Source: a virus (lineage: Duplodnaviria; Heunggongvirae; Uroviricota; Caudoviricetes). Taken from it: a DNA stretch of 14,286 bases. The translations under genes were made by a program, and so were the position numbers. The notes under the pieces are model-generated. The model was not told the DNA's origin and ran no database searches. It saw only the letters and a program-made list of their open reading frames with translations. Shown here one piece after another: positions 2,793 to 14,286 of the stretch (positions are counted from its first letter, which is position 1; every line of letters starts with the position of its first letter). Location: IMG/VR virus record IMGVR_UViG_2711768074_000014; one strand, written 5' to 3'.

Positions 2793-3956
2793 TTACGCCT
2801 TCTTTATATCCTCCATAATTCCACAGTGGGACATATTTGGGACATTATCACCAAAAATGTCGTCTATTTTCCTTGCATGCTCTGTCAAATGATTAGGCGC
2901 AAGGTGAGCATACCTACGAACCATTTCTATGGACTCCCATCCGCCCATTTCCTGAAGCACAGATAATGGGACGCCTGACTGGATCAGCCAGCTTGCCCAG
3001 GTGTGTCTGAGGTCATGGAAACGGAAATCTTCAATTCCTGCACGACGACAAGCTGATAGCCATGATGTCTTGCTGTCGATGCGCATCTTCCTGACCGCAG
3101 GCGTTGATGTTCCATCTGCTCGCTTAGCCGCCTTGGTATGTACAAACACCCATTTGTGATGCTTGCCTATTTGATCACGCAACACTTTACAGGCGGTATC
3201 GTTCAGCGCCACACCAATGGCGCGGTTTGATTTGCTCTCTTCTGGATTCACCCAGGCAACTCGTCGCTGCATGTCGATTTGTTGCCATTCCAGATTTATG
3301 ATGTTCGACTTTCTCAGACCAGTTGCCAGCGCAAACTTGACGACAGATTTCAGTGGTTCGGGGCACTCATCAATAAGGCGTTTTGCTTCCTCCTTTTCCA
3401 GCCATCTGACTCGCTTGTTTCTGACCGCTGGTATCTTGATGACAGGCGCTTTTTCCAGCCACTTCCAGTCGCGTTCTGCAGCACGGAGAATGGCCTTTAT
3501 CATGGCAAGATGCTTTGCCTTTGTCTGAGTTGATACTGGCTTTGGTTCATAAACAGGCGGTTCTTTACCTTTCCTGATGGCGGCCTGAACTTTCTGTTTC
3601 CATATTTCTTTCGTCTTTCTGTTATGCATTCTGCTTACAGCAGAGTAAATCTTTGCCTCCGAGATATCTTTAAGCCTTATACCCTCAAAATGTTCAAGCC
3701 AGAACTCAATCCGGCTTTTATCTGAATCGAGAGATTTTTTATCAGCTTTTTCCTCAAGCCATCTTAGGCAGGCCTCTTCAAAAGTGACATCAGGTAAATC
3801 CCCTAGCTTTTCTACTCGCCAGAGTTCTGCTTTTCGCTTGTCGTGCAACTCCTGAGCTTGCCGCTTGTCCTTTGTGCCAAGAGATTCCTTAATTCGTTTC
3901 CCGCCCGGGAGCGAATACGAGGCATACCATATTTCATTTCTGCGGAAGAGTGACAT
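2793..3956 (-). CDS. int: Phage tyrosine integrase (387 aa), argU-site (DLP12 IntD-like) type
   Basis: C-terminal catalytic region ...[42 protein letters not shown]... carries the R..H-x-x-R...Y signature of tyrosine recombinases. Adjacent and antiparallel to the tRNA. Confidence 0.9.
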
Positions 3957-7970: not shown

Positions 7971-8597
7971 TTAGAGTTCGTATTGAACTCCTTTGACTAC
8001 ACCAATGATAAGGCAATTACCATTGATAGGGATGTTGGGATACCGAGGATTTAATGGCACTAAAAACTTTTGAGGGCCATCGATGACTAATTTTTTTACT
8101 GTAGCTTCGTTTGTTCCATCAAGTCGAGCGATGACTATTTTTCCATGACGAGGTTCTGCATCTGGATCTACAATCACTGTTGCGCCTTCTGGTATTGTTG
8201 GGAGGCCATTAGGGTTAGTCATGGAGTCACCTTTAACCTCTAATGCAAATGAGTTATCACCAACCTTTAATGATGTATCTACCCACTTGTCCACTTCACT
8301 AAACACTTCTGCTGCCCTGCACTCAGTAAACTGCCCAGCCTGAACCCACGATATTACAGGAACTCTGCGCATGTTTGTGACGAGTTTGCCTTCAAACTCA
8401 GCACCGTAAAGAATGTAATCTATTGACGTATTGAAGAACTTCGCTAATTTCGAAAGTGCCTCCCCGCCAGGGGTATTGATGTCTTTCTCCCAGTACCCCA
8501 CAGCAACGTCGCTTACTCCACAAAATTTACCCAATTCTTTCTGGGACGTTCTGGTAACTCTTCTCAGAGCTTTTATACGCTGACCAACCGTTTCCAT
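7971..8597 (-). CDS. cI: CI-type prophage repressor (208 aa): N-terminal XRE-like HTH plus C-terminal S24 (LexA-like) peptidase domain
   Basis: N-terminus METVGQRIKALRRVTRTSQKELGKFCGVSDVAVGYWEKD is an HTH; C-terminus ...ALEVKGDSMTNPNG...GATVIVDP...HGKIVIARL...ATVKKL has the GDSM serine and a downstream lysine. Divergent from cro. Confidence 0.88.
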   Translation of the reverse strand: METVGQRIKALRRVTRTSQKELGKFCGVSDVAVGYWEKDINTPGGEALSKLAKFFNTSIDYILYGAEFEGKLVTNMRRVPVISWVQAGQFTECRAAEVFSEVDKWVDTSLKVGDNSFALEVKGDSMTNPNGLPTIPEGATVIVDPDAEPRHGKIVIARLDGTNEATVKKLVIDGPQKFLVPLNPRYPNIPINGNCLIIGVVKGVQYEL

Positions 8598-8694
8598 AGG
8601 AGCACCATTTCTTTAATCGCTAAGTAATCTTAGTTTTTATTGACCAAAGATAGATTTGTAATTAGCATCTAACAAAACTTAGTTTGGAGGGCGT
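8598..8694. promoter_or_regulatory. Immunity-region operator/promoter (OR with PR, and probably PRM)
   Basis: Inverted half-sites CTAAG-taat-CTTAG (8620..8633), and further CTTAG/CTAAC motifs at 8661..8685. Rightward promoter candidate TTGACC (8640..8645), 17-nt spacer, TAGCAT (8663..8668). GGAGG lies 4 nt before the cro ATG. Confidence 0.6.
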
Positions 8695-8895
8695 ATGACA
8701 ACTGACGATATCGAAAGCTACTTCGGCAGTATTGAGAAAGTTGCTGCTTTTTTCGGCATAACAACTGAAGCCGTTTATCAGTGGCGAAACCGTCCGGGCC
8801 AGTTAATTCCAAAAGGACGTGCAGCAGAAGCTGCATATAGAACTTGCGGACGGTTGCCATTTAAACCTGAGCTTTATGAAAAATCTAATGGATAA
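8695..8895 (+). CDS. cro: Cro-like small HTH regulator (66 aa)
   Basis: Small ORF divergent from cI with a good SD; sequence ...SIEKVAAFFGITTEAVYQWR... is HTH-like. Confidence 0.7.
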   Translation: MTTDDIESYFGSIEKVAAFFGITTEAVYQWRNRPGQLIPKGRAAEAAYRTCGRLPFKPELYEKSNG

Positions 8896-9484
8896 ATCGA
8901 TTAACAGAAACCACAGAACGATGAGGCTAACCGTGGGTAAGCATCACTGGAAAGTAGAAAAACAGCCTGAGTGGTACGTGAAAGCTGTCAGAAAAACTAT
9001 CGCAAAGTTGCCGGGTGGTTACGCTGAAGCAGCTGACTGGCTGGATGTAACAGAGAACGCATTATTTAACCGCCTTCGTGCCGATGGCGATCAGATTTTC
9101 CCGCTGGGATGGGCAATGATTTTGCAACGTGCTGGTGGAACTCACTTCATTGCTGACGCAGTGGCGCAGTCTGCAAATGGCGTCTTTGTGTCTCTTCCTG
9201 ACGTCGAGGATGTGGACAACGCCGATATTAACCAGCGCCTGCTGGAAGTCATTGAACAGATCGGCAGTTATTCAAAACAGATTCGTTCAGCAATTGAAGA
9301 CGGTGTAGTGGAACCGCATGAGAAGACAGCAATTAACGACGAGCTGTACCTCTCAATTTCGAAGCTGCAGGAGCATGCAGCACTGGTCTACAAAATTTTT
9401 TGCATTTCAGAAAGTAATGACGCCCGCGAGTGTGCAGCTCCGGGCGCCGTGGCGTGTCGTGACTGTGGAGAAACTAACGCATGA
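8888..9484 (+). CDS. CII-like phage regulatory protein (198 aa; CP76-type by recollection)
   Basis: Start ATG 8888 overlaps the cro stop by 8 nt, in the position lambda cII occupies. The upstream extension of the track ORF (8819..) overlaps cro and is rejected. Family call is from memory only. Confidence 0.5.
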
Positions 9485-9839
9485 ACAGTTTAACAACACA
9501 CTACCGTCGCTCGCAACTGATTGCGCTTCCTGTACCGGGTGGAAAAGCGAAGGTGGAGTATTGCTATGCAGTAAATGTACCAGGTGACAGGGAAATTGTA
9601 ACCCACAGCTTTGCAGAGTGGGCTGTGGGTGATTTCAACCGGCAGAAGGAGACAGTCCTTTGCGACAAGTTAACCGCTGGTTCAAAGATCACTACGGAGT
9701 GCCCGTCAGAGTCATTCGTTGGGAGCCGGAAACACAACGTGTTATCTACCTCCGCGAAGGCTATGAGCATGAGTGCTTCAGCCCGCTCGAACAGTTTCGT
9801 CGTAAATTCAGGGAAATAGAGGTCGGTCATGAGCACTAA
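9481..9839 (+). pseudogene. Small phage gene, apparently frameshifted (N-terminal part in one frame, protein-like C-terminal part in the -1 frame)
   Basis: ATG 9481 overlaps the upstream stop as ATGA. That frame stays open to 9819 but becomes Ser-rich and low-complexity. The -1 frame from about 9633 reads ...[61 protein letters not shown] and ends at TAA 9837..9839, overlapping the next gene's ATG. Confidence 0.4.
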
Positions 9840-10770
9840 ATTAACCGGCTATGTATGGGATGGTTGCGCTGCATCAGGCATGAAATTATCCAGCGTGGCA
9901 ATTATGGCCCGCCTGGCTGATTTCAGTAATGACGAAGGTGTGTGCTGGCCATCAATTGAAACCATTGCCCGCCAGATTGGCGCGGGGATGAGTACCGTCA
10001 GAACGGCTATCGCACGGCTGGAAGCAGAAGGCTGGTTAACGCGTAGGGCGCGTCGCCAGGGTAACCGCAATGCGTCGAATGTTTATCAGCTTAACGTTGC
10101 GAAGCTTCAGGCAGCGGCATTTTCTCAACTGTCAGATTCTGACCCGTCAAAATCTGACGCATCAAAATCTGACCCGTCAAAATTTGATGCGTCGAAATCT
10201 GGCAAAAAAGCGGGTTTTCACCCGTCAGAATCTGGTGGGGATCCGTCAGTAAAATCAAAACATGATCCGTCAGATAAAAAAACTTCTCGTCCGGACGCTT
10301 CGCAACCGGACACGCAGACGGCTGAACAGGATTTTTTAACTCGCCATCCTGATGCGGTTGTATTCAGCCCTAAAAAGCGCCAGTGGGGGACGCAGGATGA
10401 TTTGACCTGCGCACAGTGGCTCTGGAAAAAAATCATCGCCCTGTACGAGCATGCCGCCGAATGTGACGGCGAGGTGGTTCGTCCCAAAGAACCGAACTGG
10501 ACAGCCTGGGCAAACGAAATTCGCCTGATGTGTGTGCAGGATGGTCGTACTCATAAACAAATCTGCGAGATGTACAGCCGCGTCAGTCGCGATCCGTTCT
10601 GGTGCCGTAACGTGCTCAGCCCGTCGAAGCTGCGGGAAAAATGGGATGAGCTTTCCCTGCGCTTATCGCCGTCCGTCAGCACGTACACCGAAAAACGCGA
10701 AGACCCGTACTTCAAAGCCAGTTACGACAACGTGGACTACAGCCAGATCCCGGCAGGATTCAGGGGGTGA
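9829..10770 (+). CDS. Phage replication initiator (O-like, 313 aa) with N-terminal HTH and origin iterons inside the gene
   Basis: N-terminus ...LSSVAIMARLADFSNDEGVCWPSIETIARQIGAGMSTVRTAIARLEAEGWL is a winged-helix DNA-binding domain. The middle encodes DPSKSDASKSDPSKFDASKSG from tandem DNA repeats. Sits right of cro/CII as in lambda. Confidence 0.75.
   Translation: MSTKLTGYVWDGCAASGMKLSSVAIMARLADFSNDEGVCWPSIETIARQIGAGMSTVRTAIARLEAEGWLTRRARRQGNRNASNVYQLNVAKLQAAAFSQLSDSDPSKSDASKSDPSKFDASKSGKKAGFHPSESGGDPSVKSKHDPSDKKTSRPDASQPDTQTAEQDFLTRHPDAVVFSPKKRQWGTQDDLTCAQWLWKKIIALYEHAAECDGEVVRPKEPNWTAWANEIRLMCVQDGRTHKQICEMYSRVSRDPFWCRNVLSPSKLREKWDELSLRLSPSVSTYTEKREDPYFKASYDNVDYSQIPAGFRG
10133..10203 (+). 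repeat. Iteron array, probable replication origin (ori)
   Basis: Five repeats of a ~15-bp unit (ccg)TCAAAATCTGAC starting at 10133, 10147, 10162, 10177 and 10192; further degenerate copies and A-rich tracts follow up to about 10290. Confidence 0.7.
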
Positions 10771-10772
10771 TC

Positions 10773-11261
10773 ATGAGTCTTTTGAATGACGTTCAGAAAT
10801 TCATTGAAGCCCATCCGGGGTGTACTTCCGGAGACATTGCGGATGCTTTTGCAGGTTACTCACGACAGCGCGTTCTGCAGTCAGCAAGCAAGTTACGTCA
10901 GAGTGGGCGTGTGGCTCACCGTTGTGAAGGGGATACACGCAGACATTTCCCGCGGCTGACTGAGATACCGCAGGAGCCGGAACCGCAACCAGTTCGTGAA
11001 TCCAGACCTGTGCGCAATTTCTATGTCGGCACTAACGATCCCCGGGTGATTTTGTGCCTGACCCGCCAGGCGGAAGAACTGGAGTCCAGGGGCTTATACC
11101 GTCGTGCTGCAACGGTGTGGATGGCGGCATTCCGTGAAAGCCACTCCCAGCAAGAGCGAAACAATTTTCTTGCGCGTCGTGAGCGGTGTTTACGGAAAAG
11201 CAGCAAGCGCGCTGCATCGGGTGAAGAGTGGTATCTGTCAGGGAATTACGTGGGGGCTTAA
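10773..11261 (+). CDS. Hypothetical protein (162 aa) with a PerC/Pch-like C-terminal region
   Basis: ATG 10773 with AGGGGG 5 nt upstream. C-terminus ...LESRGLYRRAATVWMAAFRESHSQQERNNFLARRERCLRK resembles the PerC-family motif as I recall it. The track ORF begins 6 nt earlier at a GTG. Confidence 0.5.
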   Translation: MSLLNDVQKFIEAHPGCTSGDIADAFAGYSRQRVLQSASKLRQSGRVAHRCEGDTRRHFPRLTEIPQEPEPQPVRESRPVRNFYVGTNDPRVILCLTRQAEELESRGLYRRAATVWMAAFRESHSQQERNNFLARRERCLRKSSKRAASGEEWYLSGNYVGA

Positions 11262-11914
11262 TGAGTAATAAATATTGCCAGGCGCTGGTGGAGCTGCGGA
11301 ACAAACCAGCCCATGAACTGAAGGAAGTGGGCGATCAGTGGCGCACGCCGGACAACATTTTCTGGGGAATTAACACCCTGTTTGGCCCGTTTGTTCTGGA
11401 TCTGTTTACTGATGGTGATAACGCCAAATGCGCCGCGTATTACACTGCGGAAGACAACGCGCTGGCGCATGACTGGTCAGAACGTCTTGCGGAGCTTAAA
11501 GGTGCTGCCTTTGGTAATCCCCCGTACAGCCGCGCCAGTCAGCATGAGGGGCAATACATCACCGGCATGCGTTACATCATGAAGCATGCCAGTGCCATGC
11601 GTGATAAAGGCGGGCGCTATGTTTTCCTGATCAAAGCTGCCACCAGCGAAGTTTGGTGGCCGGAAGATGCAGACCATATTGCTTTTATTCGCGGGCGTAT
11701 TGGTTTTGAACTGCCAGCCTGGTTTATCCCGAAGGACGAGAAGCAGGTGCCGACAGGCGCTTTCTTCGCTGGTGCTATTGCTGTTTTCGACAAGACCCGG
11801 AAGGGACCGGCAATCAGCTACATCGGGCGCGATGAACTTGAGGCATGTGGTGAGGCCTTTCTGGCGCAGGTTCGCCAGCAGGCGGAAAAACTGGTCAGGG
11901 AGATGGCGGCATGA
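11261..11914 (+). CDS. Phage N6-adenine DNA methyltransferase (Dam-like, 217 aa)
   Basis: Catalytic motif GNPPYS (the NPPY signature of N6-adenine MTases). ATG 11261 overlaps the upstream stop as TAATG, with GGGGG as SD. Confidence 0.8.
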   Translation: MSNKYCQALVELRNKPAHELKEVGDQWRTPDNIFWGINTLFGPFVLDLFTDGDNAKCAAYYTAEDNALAHDWSERLAELKGAAFGNPPYSRASQHEGQYITGMRYIMKHASAMRDKGGRYVFLIKAATSEVWWPEDADHIAFIRGRIGFELPAWFIPKDEKQVPTGAFFAGAIAVFDKTRKGPAISYIGRDELEACGEAFLAQVRQQAEKLVREMAA

Positions 11915-12237
11915 CGACGTTAACTCAATGCCAGCAGCAGGTGCTGGATATGCTGATTTCTTACCAGCAAGAACGTGGCTTTCCGCCAACCAATCAGGAG
12001 GTGGCAACCATGCTGGGATACCGTTCGGTGAATGCAGCGGTGGAGCATCTTCGCGCACTGGAGAAAAAAGGCGTCATCACGATAAAGCGTGGCGTGGCCC
12101 GGGGGATAACTCTTCATACCGCGGTGAAGGACGACGACAGCGAGGCGGTCGGGATTATCCGCGCACTGCTTGCCGGTGAGGAAAACGCCAGGCTGCGTGC
12201 AGCCCACTGGTTACATGAGAGGGGCCTGAAAGTATGA
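11911..12237 (+). CDS. LexA-like protein consisting only of the N-terminal DNA-binding domain (108 aa)
   Basis: MTTLTQCQQQVLDMLISYQQERGFPPTNQEVATMLGYRSVNAAVEHLRALEKKGVITIKRGVARGITL aligns by eye with the LexA N-terminal winged helix. No S24 peptidase domain follows. Start overlaps the upstream stop as ATGA. Confidence 0.7.
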   Translation: MTTLTQCQQQVLDMLISYQQERGFPPTNQEVATMLGYRSVNAAVEHLRALEKKGVITIKRGVARGITLHTAVKDDDSEAVGIIRALLAGEENARLRAAHWLHERGLKV

Positions 12238-12623
12238 AGCTGATCTTGCCTTTCCCGCCCAGCGTGAACACGTACTGGCGACACCCCAACAAAGGGGCGT
12301 TTGCTGGTAAGAGTCTGATAAGCGCAGCGGGGCGCAAATTCCAGAGCGCGGCGTGCGCAGCAATAGTTGAGCAGTTACGTCGTCTGCCGAAACCAACGTC
12401 GGCACCTGCTTCAGTGGAGATCGTGTTGTTTCCTCCGGATAACCGGATCCGCGATCTGGACAACTATAACAAGGCGCTGTTTGACGCCCTGACCCATGCG
12501 GGTGTGTGGGAAGACGACAGTCAGGTGAAAAGAATGCTGGTGGAGTGGGGACCGGTTATCCCGAAAGGGAAGGTCGAGATCACTATCAGTAAGTACGAGA
12601 AAACGGCGGGTGCAGCCGCCTGA
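12234..12623 (+). CDS. rusA: RusA-family Holliday-junction resolvase (129 aa)
   Basis: MKLILPFPPSVNTYWRH... and ...DLDNYNKALFDALTHAGVWEDDSQV... are RusA hallmarks. ATGA overlap with the previous gene. Confidence 0.85.
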   Translation: MKLILPFPPSVNTYWRHPNKGAFAGKSLISAAGRKFQSAACAAIVEQLRRLPKPTSAPASVEIVLFPPDNRIRDLDNYNKALFDALTHAGVWEDDSQVKRMLVEWGPVIPKGKVEITISKYEKTAGAAA

Positions 12624-12642
12624 TCAAGAGGAGAAACGAAGT

Positions 12643-13248
12643 ATGAATAATCTGATGGTCATTGATGGTATTGAAGTTCGTCGTGATGCTTATGGGCGTT
12701 ACAGCCTGAACGATCTGCATCGCGCAGCAGTAGCATCTGGTGCAAATGCCAGAACCAAGGAGCCGGGAAAGTTTCTTTCCAGCCAACAAACTGTTGAACT
12801 TGTTCATGAATTGACCAACACCCAGAATTTGGGTGTTGACCCGGTGAGTGTGATTCATGGGGGAAATGAACGGGGAACGTATGTCTGCAAGGAACTGGTG
12901 TATGCCTATGCAATGTGGATCAGCCCGTCATTCCATCTGAAGGTGATCCGTACTTTCGATATGGTAACCAGCGCACCGGAAAAATTATCCGGACAGGCTG
13001 CTGACAAGATGCAGGCTGGCGTGATCCTGCTGGACTTTATGCGCCGGGAGTTAAACCTGTCTAACTCTTCAGTGCTTGGTGCCTGTCAGAAACTCCAGGA
13101 GGCTGTTGGCTTACCGAATCTGGCACCGCGCTATGCCATTGATGCTCCTGCTGATGCACACGATGGCTCAAGTCGCCCGACACTGTCACTGAGTGCACTG
13201 CTGAAACAGTATGGTATACGCCTGACGGCTAATCAGGCATATCACTAG
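12643..13248 (+). CDS. KilA-N domain protein (201 aa)
   Basis: ATG 12643 with GAGGAG upstream. N-terminus MNNLMVIDGIEVRRDAYGRYSLNDLHRAAVASGANARTKEPGKFL matches the KilA-N pattern. Confidence 0.65.
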   Translation: MNNLMVIDGIEVRRDAYGRYSLNDLHRAAVASGANARTKEPGKFLSSQQTVELVHELTNTQNLGVDPVSVIHGGNERGTYVCKELVYAYAMWISPSFHLKVIRTFDMVTSAPEKLSGQAADKMQAGVILLDFMRRELNLSNSSVLGACQKLQEAVGLPNLAPRYAIDAPADAHDGSSRPTLSLSALLKQYGIRLTANQAYH

Positions 13249-13452
13249 ATGGTGAAACTGGGGATCGTCGAGCAGCGCGAACGATACAGCCGTACAGCGA
13301 TTAACAACATCAAAAAATTCTGGTCGCTGACAGCGAAAGGTTGCATGTTCGGCAAGAACATCACCAGTCCCGCAAATCCGCGCGAGACACAGCCGCATTT
13401 CTTCGAATCCCGATTCCCTGAGCTGTTAAAGCTGCTCGATACCGTTCATTGA
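13249..13452 (+). CDS. Small hypothetical protein (67 aa)
   Basis: ATG directly after the upstream stop and ending where the next gene's SD begins. No recognisable SD or domain. Confidence 0.3.
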   Translation: MVKLGIVEQRERYSRTAINNIKKFWSLTAKGCMFGKNITSPANPRETQPHFFESRFPELLKLLDTVH

Positions 13453-13459
13453 GGTGACC

Positions 13460-14286
13460 GTGAGAGCACTACTGACCCCTGAAATTGCCCCGCGTATGGG
13501 GATCGTATTGTTCAGGCCAGGTTCAGAGCTGATGCCCCTGTTTATGCAGGGGCGTGTCCTGCTGGAGCCTGAGCCGGAACGTTATTCATCTTTCGCCAGT
13601 GGTGCCGTTCCGGCGGCATCACAACCGCTGGCGGATGATCCTGCCGTTCGGGCCGTGTTCCGCAATGAGGCAGTGATCCGTCGTGCTGGTGGCGTGGAAT
13701 GTCTTGAAAGCTGGTTACTTCGTGAAAAAGGCTGCCAGTGGCCTCATTCCGACTGGCACAGCGAGAACATGACCACAATGCGACACGCTCCGGGTGCAAT
13801 CCGTCTGTGCTGGCACTGCGATAACCAGCTGCGCGATCAGTTCACGGAACGGCTGGAATCAATGGCAACGGATAACTGTGCCCGCTGGGTGTTGTCTGTT
13901 GTGCGTCGGGATCTCGGTTTTGATGACAGTCACGTTGTGACAATGCCGGAACTGTGCTGGTGGCTGATTCGTAATGACCTGGCGGATGCCTTACCGGAAA
14001 GTGCAGCCCGTAAGGCACTGAGATTACCGAAGCCTGTTGTGCCGTCTGTTACCCGGGAAAGTGACCTTGTGCCTTCGGTTCCTGCCACCAGCATCATCCA
14101 GGATAAGGCGAAAAAGGTGCTGGCGCTGAAAGTGGATCCGGAGTCGCCGGAGTCTTTTATGTTACGCCCAAAACGTCGCCGCTGGGTTAATGAAAAGTAC
14201 ACGCGCTGGGTTAAGACACAGCCGTGTGCATGTTGTGGAAAGCCTGCTGATGATCCCCACCACCTGATAGGTCACGGTCAGGGTGG
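13460..14286 (+). CDS. DUF968-like (YdfU-like) nin-region protein, 3'-truncated by the window end
   Basis: Frame open from GTG 13460 (GAGG 5 nt upstream) to the window end, about 275 codons by hand translation. Contains CWHC and ...KTQPCACCGKPADDPHHLIGHGQG... Cys/His clusters. Not in the ORF track because no stop falls inside the window. Family call from memory. Confidence 0.55.
   Translation, partial: MRALLTPEIAPRMGIVLFRPGSELMPLFMQGRVLLEPEPERYSSFASGAVPAASQPLADDPAVRAVFRNEAVIRRAGGVECLESWLLREKGCQWPHSDWHSENMTTMRHAPGAIRLCWHCDNQLRDQFTERLESMATDNCARWVLSVVRRDLGFDDSHVVTMPELCWWLIRNDLADALPESAARKALRLPKPVVPSVTRESDLVPSVPATSIIQDKAKKVLALKVDPESPESFMLRPKRRRWVNEKYTRWVKTQPCACCGKPADDPHHLIGHGQG

Follow-up and report, generated by a model that had tools for sequence, protein, structure and literature searches.

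The described proteins with which the protein analysed here can be compared include the PerC family (PerC of EPEC and PchA-E of EHEC), the ANR family (Aar and Rnr) and Ren of phage lambda. PerC-family proteins are described as ~10 kDa (PMC5293775). Strong ler activation within the family is confined to PerC and PchABC; ler is unaffected by PchD and rises by < 2-fold with PchE (PMC5931665). A PerC-like protein borne on a PICI represses LEE1 (PMC11773190). The Group 1 pch genes are prophage-borne and SOS-induced (PMC5931665). Pch reduces the binding of H-NS and relieves silencing by displacing it (PMC4764244). The ANR proteins, which bind both H-NS and AraC-family activators (PMC5570504, PMC4983702), share the signature residues A10, E14, A22, W26, A29, W43 and R47, distributed over three helices (PMC4983702). 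The lambda ren gene is not needed for lambda replication (PMC3640518).

In E. coli K-12, yfdN has been termed the unique PerC homologue of this strain, and its deletion from a reporter strain was purely precautionary (PMC5931665); the K-12 entry b2357 is labelled “uncharacterized protein YfdN”. Our literature search found no direct experiment on YfdN, only this precautionary deletion and screen-level mentions, which comprise a glycogen phenotype upon over-expression, a region recovered in a filamentation screen and a predicted interaction network. A search on its counterpart in Shigella phage SfV, orf40, returned nothing relevant. Here we analysed a yfdN-type gene within a DNA stretch of 14,286 nucleotides (IMG/VR record IMGVR_UViG_2711768074_000014, hereafter the window). 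Both RefSeq and the literature already contain this gene together with its PerC-family assignment; the original prediction, made from the sequence alone, had taken it for a PerC/Pch-like regulator located in a phage replication module.

The yfdN gene in the early operon of an argU prophage

The window is a segment of E. coli chromosome in which the sfm fimbrial genes, fimZ and the tRNA-Arg(UCU) gene argU precede a prophage. This prophage has integrated at argU and has an early region of the SfV/CPS-53 type. The features of the window are as follows:

2701-2777, tRNA-Arg(UCU) gene argU
2793-3956, intD-type integrase gene, the prophage start
7971..8597, minus strand, CI-type repressor gene, divergent from cro (Pfam Peptidase_S24 E = 1.8e-27, HTH_3 E = 1.3e-9)
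8640..8668, plus strand, sigma-70-like promoter-like site from a consensus scan, just upstream of cro, the presumed pR
8695-8895, cro, after the pR-like site
9829..10770, plus strand, O-like replication initiator gene, 313 aa (PHROG 391 “replication initiation O-like”, E = 5.5e-135)
10762..10767, plus strand, Shine-Dalgarno AGGGGG, within the last O-like codons
10773..11261, plus strand, yfdN-type gene, 162 codons and a TAA stop (ORF/sequence, RefSeq annotation)
11261..11914, plus strand, phage Dam-type N6-adenine methyltransferase gene (Pfam Dam E = 2.2e-44; PADLOC MTase_II)
11911-12237, LexA-DNA-binding-domain protein gene, downstream of dam
12234-12623, RusA gene, followed by a KilA-N protein gene

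Between cro and the O-like gene lie a YmfL/CII-like gene and then a DUF4222 gene. The O-like initiator has an N-terminal HTH_36 winged helix (Pfam), a repeat-encoded linker and a variable C-terminal half. Its gene ends with a TGA stop at 10768-10770, which leaves a gap of 2 nt to yfdN; at the other end, the stop codon of yfdN and the start codon of dam overlap (TAATG). A Pfam scan of the operon genes (7971-13452) gave matches for the repressor, Cro, the CII-like protein, the O-like initiator, Dam, the LexA-like protein, RusA and KilA-N; no AraC-family domain was matched among them.

The open reading frame runs from the ATG at 10773 to the TAA at 11259-11261 on the plus strand and encodes a product of 162 aa, whereas the RefSeq start, a GTG at 10767, gives 164 aa. 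We prefer the ATG because the Shine-Dalgarno sequence is spaced 5 nt before it and because nearly all of 31 diverged homologues have an equivalent M-S-[LIM] start. RefSeq names the gene “yfdN: PerC family transcriptional regulator”, and the protein matches PHROG 1324 “transcriptional activator” with an E-value of 5.6e-78. It is 96% identical to both K-12 YfdN (b2357) and SfV orf40, and 69% identical to Sb43 of Salmonella phage ST64B. In K-12 CPS-53, SfV and ST64B, the gene has the same neighbours as in the window, with the O-like gene upstream and Dam downstream. The window prophage differs in being located at argU rather than argW; moreover, it keeps an intact repressor, cro and a full-length O-like gene, whereas K-12 has only the truncated yfdO and yfdM. 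We therefore identify the gene as yfdN, which lambdoid prophages of the SfV/CPS-53 type carry as an optional member of their early operon.

A single sigma-70-like match on the plus strand, a consensus pattern match only, was found between the repressor gene and position 13500, which is the pR-like site at 8640..8668, and a pattern scan of 8500-13500 found no terminator-like sites on this strand. This single promoter-like site, the lack of terminator-like sites in the scanned range, the overlapping codons and the intact repressor suggest that SOS induction or infection turns on yfdN from the rightward early promoter. It is presumed that pR drives the whole series cro-ymfL-DUF4222-O-yfdN-dam-lexA-like-rusA-kilA-N. 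As the repressor is of the CI type with an S24 peptidase domain, an SOS-inducible de-repression of the yfdN operon is implied.

YfdN consists of a winged helix and a PerC/ANR-type core

An exhaustive HMMER search over 1.8 billion representative proteins yielded a coherent set of homologues of 139-165 aa that share the same layout down to 24% identity. Using a 32-sequence alignment, we built an AlphaFold2 model of YfdN with a mean pLDDT of 86.9, in which a winged helix and a three-helix core are connected by a linker. The protein is predicted to be composed of four segments:

10773..10952, plus strand, predicted winged helix-turn-helix domain, residues 1-60 (pLDDT 94-98)
10953..11039, plus strand, Pro/Glu-rich linker, residues 61-89, predicted to be disordered (pLDDT about 60)
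11040..11201, plus strand, PerC/ANR-type three-helix core, residues 90-143 (pLDDT 96-98; Pfam PerC, NCBIfam ANR)
11202..11258, plus strand, C-terminal tail, residues 144-162 (pLDDT 52-71, low confidence)

The modelled N-terminal domain possesses the three helices (residues 3-13, 19-25 and 31-44) and the β-hairpin wing (residues 47-60) of the MarR/BlaI-like winged-HTH fold; a profile search of the PDB sequences retrieved BlaI with an E-value of 1.3e-4. All matches in BFVD were to the winged helix as well. The linker is variable, with a mean pairwise identity of 8% across the family and a length varying from 4 to 31 residues, and the majority of the residues in which the window protein departs from its K-12 and SfV counterparts fall within it.

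The C-terminal core is predicted to fold into three helices (residues 90-105, 109-122 and 126-143). The conserved residues in this core are A100, L103, E104, G107, L108, R111, A112, A113, W116, A119, R129, R136, C139 and L140. The core is basic, with a net charge of +6 in the window protein and +4 on average in the family, compared to an average of about +2 for the winged helix. Structural similarity search for the core using Foldseek against the PDB, with a single-sequence model, gave only generic MIT/TPR-like three-helix matches (E > 0.5), and the profile search of PDB sequences returned nothing for the core; no solved PerC or ANR core is available for comparison. The tail that follows ends in a subfamily motif, W-x-L-[AS]-G-x-[YF]-x-G, which reads EEWYLSGNYVGA in the window protein. 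Among the 32 diverged homologues, the tail glycines G157 and G161 are kept in 84% and 90%, respectively. This motif is found family-wide but not in the PchE-like short PerC-family proteins, and the tail of YfdN stands in place of the canonical C-terminal third of PerC/Pch.

Comparison with the PerC and ANR families

The original prediction had based the PerC resemblance on two C-terminal motifs, LESRGLYRRAATVW and RRERCL, which correspond to residues 103-116 and 135-140, respectively, and had proposed a search against the PerC family as a check. The Pfam PerC model (PF06069) matched residues 98-149 with 37.9 bits and an E-value of 2.2e-9, above the gathering score of 22.6, and it matched all 32 members of the family alignment, which are diverged two-domain homologues. 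Neither of the two outcomes that the original prediction had named as refuting it, a lack of any significant PerC match or a match to replication proteins, was thus observed. The resemblance is significant but partial, as the match covers 52 positions of the 90-position model (positions 5-56) rather than its full length. The scores of YfdN and of two Pch proteins of strain Sakai are as follows:

PchE (Sakai, 90 aa): Pfam PerC 152.8 bits, positions 1-89; NCBIfam ANR 17.9 bits
PchD (Sakai, 89 aa): Pfam PerC 123.8 bits, positions 6-89; NCBIfam ANR 16.2 bits
YfdN (window): Pfam PerC 37.9 bits, positions 5-56; NCBIfam ANR 24.1 bits

Since only 52 of 90 positions are matched, at 37.9 bits compared to 124-153 for the Pch proteins, YfdN shares the helical core with them but is not a Pch orthologue. 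The segment in common comprises helices 1-3 of PerC and PchA-E, with the pattern LE-x2-GL-x-RRAA-x2-W ... RR-x2-C. YfdN is 40% identical to PchE over 52 aa, and both PchE and PchD align only with residues 94-145. An extra N-terminal region of ~90 residues, as proposed earlier, is thereby confirmed, and can now be divided into the 60-residue winged helix and a linker of ~29 residues. Both YfdN and PerC/Pch are basic, and both are encoded on horizontally acquired elements, here the argU prophage with its integrase, repressor, cro, O-like, Dam and RusA genes. They differ in that Pch proteins are single-domain proteins of 89-104 aa that match the whole PerC model, whereas YfdN, at 162 aa, is not a small single-domain PerC protein; it matches part of the model, and has an additional winged helix and linker and a different C-terminal tail. 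Judged from these alignments, the PerC-like reading is correct only at the level of the shared helical core.

The core also resembles the ANR family. The NCBIfam ANR model (NF033650) matched residues 96-142 with 24.1 bits and an E-value of 2.3e-5, which is below the cut-off of 32 but exceeds the scores of PchE and PchD. At an offset of 90, A100, E104, A112, W116 and A119 of YfdN are in register with five of the seven residues of the ANR signature, and they are conserved in 75-100% of the homologues; in helix 3, R136 and C139 lie one or two residues out of register, and there is no conserved second tryptophan. Three predicted helices are common to YfdN and the ANR proteins Aar and Rnr. They differ in that the ANR proteins are small, single-domain and accompany AraC-family activators, whereas YfdN has two domains and no gene in the scanned operon matched an AraC-family domain.

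Distribution of yfdN

Of 5426 complete E. coli genomes, 2674 carry the same allele class, annotated as “PerC family transcriptional regulator” and often also as “yfdN”; K-12, ECOR29 and isolates from cheese are among them. The gene is also found in mEp460, the PhiR-series phages and Stx2c-converting phages, as well as in STEC strains, and diverged homologues occur in Citrobacter, Atlantibacter, Cronobacter, Franconibacter, Enterobacter, Kosakonia and Erwinia. A locus search with a degenerate DNA pattern for GLYRRAAT-x-W gave 23 genome matches. Eleven of them encode a YfdN match, all in Enterobacterales or on a short E. coli-like fragment, and the other 12 look like chance matches, of which we estimate that about 17 would be expected. 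Scans for loci with the single proteins P0146 and P0184 found nothing. The distribution, for which the original prediction had proposed a check of pathogenic against commensal strains, shows no tie to pathogens: K-12 carries the gene, and Atlantibacter, Cronobacter, Kosakonia and Erwinia carry homologues.

Alternative functions of YfdN

That the reading frame is a chance ORF or a functionless, degraded pseudogene is practically negligible as an explanation. The prophages that carry the gene are often cryptic, and the K-12 neighbours yfdO and yfdM are truncated; however, the two-domain architecture of YfdN is kept at full length down to 24% identity, the Pfam PerC and PHROG matches are significant, and the gene is present in named phage genome records such as SfV, mEp460 and PhiR29. 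With a dN/dS of 0.12 against K-12 and 0.35 against SfV, and with the replacements clustered in the linker, yfdN is a real and constrained gene. A role in replication was raised by the original prediction, which had placed the gene where a helicase loader would normally follow the O-like gene. Its position stands: a long ORF ends directly at the yfdN start in 57 of 59 loci, which is wherever the upstream ORF is readable (in the remaining two, the available sequence stops short of it), and this ORF is the O-like gene in all 14 loci checked by tblastn; the gene downstream varies among loci, being Dam, LexA-like or others. YfdN might then be a replication accessory, a counterpart of lambda P that works as loader or adaptor with the C-terminal half of the O-like protein. 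The operon has no separate P, DnaC or DnaB-like gene, and the C-terminal half of O and YfdN are both variable next to a conserved O N-terminus, with a correlation of 0.81 between their pairwise identities. However, lambda P resembles YfdN only in being encoded after O; the alignment of lambda P against the YfdN family with hhalign had a probability of 0.1% over 6 columns, which is no similarity, and searches of Pfam, NCBIfam and PHROGs gave no replication-family match for YfdN. The O-like initiator itself matches both the “DnaD-like helicase loader” phrog_2514, with an E-value of 7.6e-29, and the “primosomal protein” phrog_11896, and its PHROG matches include a “replisome organizer” annotation. 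In Klebsiella phage 1 LV-2017, vB_EcoS-716R3 and mEp390, the homologous O gene is followed directly by Dam or the LexA-like gene, without yfdN. Between allele types, YfdN is 24-37% identical, compared to 83-100% for the O N-terminus and about 80% for both Dam and RusA, and the types reassort: the window and SfV share 96% identity in YfdN but 32% in the O C-terminus, whereas loci L082 and L087 share 36% and 82%, respectively. Because of this reassortment, the correlation between the O C-terminus and YfdN reflects linkage. Between the window and SfV, whose YfdN proteins are 96% identical, O has only about 32% identity except for its final 33 residues, which reach 82%; this would fit a tail that co-varies with YfdN. 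We rejected this co-variation, because phages that lack YfdN still have this tail at 54-67% identity, which makes it a feature of the O family. We consider a loader or adaptor role very unlikely. Rather than belonging to the replication machinery, yfdN is an optional gene that is always inserted at the same place; since homologous replication modules lack it, the slot after an O-like initiator is a positional coincidence and should not be taken as a sign of a helicase loader.

The PerC-family label could also be read as that of a virulence regulator in the sense of PerC and PchABC, which activates ler/LEE1 or other host virulence promoters, as the original prediction implied. Membership in the Pfam PerC family, the presence of the gene in STEC strains and Stx2c-converting phages, and the prophage-borne, SOS-induced Group 1 pch genes point in this direction. 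Yet the shared part is the helical core only, with a bit score of about a quarter of that of a real Pch; the allele class occurs in about half of the complete E. coli genomes, including K-12, and homologues occur in genera such as Atlantibacter, Cronobacter, Franconibacter, Kosakonia and Erwinia. Family membership is itself no predictor of LEE activation, as PchD, PchE and the PICI-borne repressor of LEE1 demonstrate (PMC5931665, PMC11773190), and we found no published test of YfdN on the LEE1/ler promoter. The implication is unsupported, and a virulence role appears improbable: with the core alone in common, with carriage by about half of the complete E. coli genomes including K-12, and with relatives in non-LEE genera, a PerC-family label on a prophage gene should not be taken as a sign of a virulence activator. 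A different comparison is offered by lambda Ren, of which the winged helix of YfdN might be a homologue; YfdN would then be a conflict gene that shields the phage from exclusion or defence by prophages or the host. The order cro-cII-O-P-ren in lambda resembles the order cro-ymfL-DUF4222-O-yfdN in the window, so that both genes occupy the same place of the pR operon after the replication genes, and ren is likewise dispensable for replication (PMC3640518). Profile-profile alignment of the Ren family against the YfdN family (hhalign) had a probability of 67% and an E-value of 5.2e-5 over 58 columns, from Met1 through the wing in a winged-helix pattern, and PHROG 142 “Ren-like exclusion protein” matched residues 3-51 with an E-value of 0.018. 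Some truncated Ren-family entries carry the name MarR family. Divergence among the YfdN alleles greatly exceeds that of the genes on either side, and a conflict role would account for their rapid turnover, although ordinary mosaicism in lambdoid phages also typically produces strongly diverged alleles at a conserved position. Against this reading, the similarity is weak and may be generic, since any two winged helices tend to match; for the single lambda Ren sequence, the alignment to the YfdN family had a probability of only 10.6%. Ren (96 aa) lacks the PerC core and differs in its C-terminal half, and PADLOC gave no defence-system match for YfdN. Taken together, a Ren-like conflict role seems doubtful.

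A proposed role as an early-operon transcription modulator

On balance, we regard it as reasonably probable, by analogy with the other proteins that carry the core, that YfdN is an optional, induction-expressed modulator of transcription that works through protein contacts. Transcription of yfdN would probably start only from the CI-repressed rightward promoter, so that a stable lysogen would lack YfdN and the protein would appear once the prophage is induced or a cell is infected. Once made, it would probably modulate transcription via protein contacts mediated in the manner of other core-bearing proteins, while the winged helix would supply the targeting to DNA or to a partner. YfdN would be dispensable for the replication module and would not act as a dedicated LEE activator. 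That it binds H-NS, DNA or any other partner is something we infer purely by analogy.

A more speculative proposal, to which we give a small chance, is that the YfdN-type proteins may form a distinct and so far undescribed two-domain branch of the PerC/ANR superfamily, with a Ren-like winged helix, a PerC core and the tail. Such a protein might serve as a fast-evolving early-operon factor that counters H-NS silencing or prophage-encoded exclusion during lytic growth. If true, the structure and function of lambda Ren would also become approachable for the first time.

In a separate comparison, we considered a PapI/FaeA-like link of the winged helix to the adjacent Dam methylase gene. The PDB entry 2htj was matched with an E-value of 2.3e-3, and FaeA was matched in one of the 32 family members (E = 0.008); these weak matches were treated as generic winged-helix similarity.

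Allelic divergence of yfdN and its neighbours

The YfdN proteins of different allele types share only 24-37% identity (window 10773-11261 against comparison loci L003 and L032-L087), whereas their same-operon neighbours are far better conserved, with identities of 83-100% for the N-terminus of the O-like replication initiator, ~80% for Dam and ~80% for RusA. Across the compared loci, the C-terminal half of the initiator is variable too, and one segment at its end is conserved across related phages:

Window 10671-10767, plus strand: 3' end of the O-like gene, last ~33 codons

These C-terminal 33 residues are 82% identical in SfV, mEp460, Stx2c-converting phages and cdtI, whereas outside them the initiators of these phages are only ~32% identical; hence the initiator gene contains a mosaic junction. 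Among phage genome records, two are natural losses of yfdN. In phage cdtI (NC_009514 38370-38447), the first 26 yfdN codons, adjoining dam, are all that is left; the annotation of Stx2a_WGPS2 shows yfdN broken by an IS insertion.

Termini of YfdN

RefSeq starts yfdN at GTG 10767, giving a protein of 164 residues, and the alternative ATG 10773 gives 162 residues; the ATG is favoured both by where the Shine-Dalgarno sequence lies and by how diverged homologues begin. At the other end, the protein carries a conserved motif:

Window 11229-11258, plus strand: W-x-L-[AS]-G-x-[YF]-x-G motif, residues 153-162 of YfdN

The motif is kept in the two-domain family, in which a winged helix precedes the PerC-type core, and in a few core-only relatives of 90 residues; the PchE-like short PerC-family proteins lack it. 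Because it is modelled with low confidence in the predicted structure, it may be a short motif that binds a partner.

A short PerC-family gene in a satellite-like element

The small element Sp7 of E. coli O157:H7 Sakai carries one of these short genes:

L030 (Sakai locus) 16104-17045: pchE region, PchE of 90 residues

In Sp7, a primase gene, a small ORF and an SSB-like gene are followed directly by pchE, and then by capsid and terminase genes. Thus, in this satellite-like element too, a short PerC-family gene comes after a replication module. PICIs commonly carry PerC-family genes (PMC11773190).

Sequence features in and around the initiator gene

Window 9481-9819: first of two overlapping ORFs, phrog_1170 (E = 4.6e-70)
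Window 9660-9839: second ORF, phrog_1343, DUF4222 (E = 2.1e-34)
Window 10117-10239: repeat array within the O-like gene, ~six repeats with a 15-bp period, TCAAAATCTGACCCG / TCAAAATCTGACGCA

The two ORFs, each with its own PHROG match, overlap by ~160 nt in different frames. Conservation of the first in related loci is limited to its first ~88 residues, suggesting that the remainder, towards the 3' end, may be an extension produced by read-through. The repeat array has overlapping inverted symmetry, and it codes for the initiator's repetitive SDPSKSDASKSDPSKFDASKS linker. It resembles an iteron-type origin; the origin of lambda likewise lies inside its initiator gene.

A search of window 8500-13500 for terminator-like hairpins gave none on the coding strand and ten on the minus strand, compared to 5.3 +/- 2.3 in shuffled sequences; one of the ten (11215-11200) lies within yfdN.
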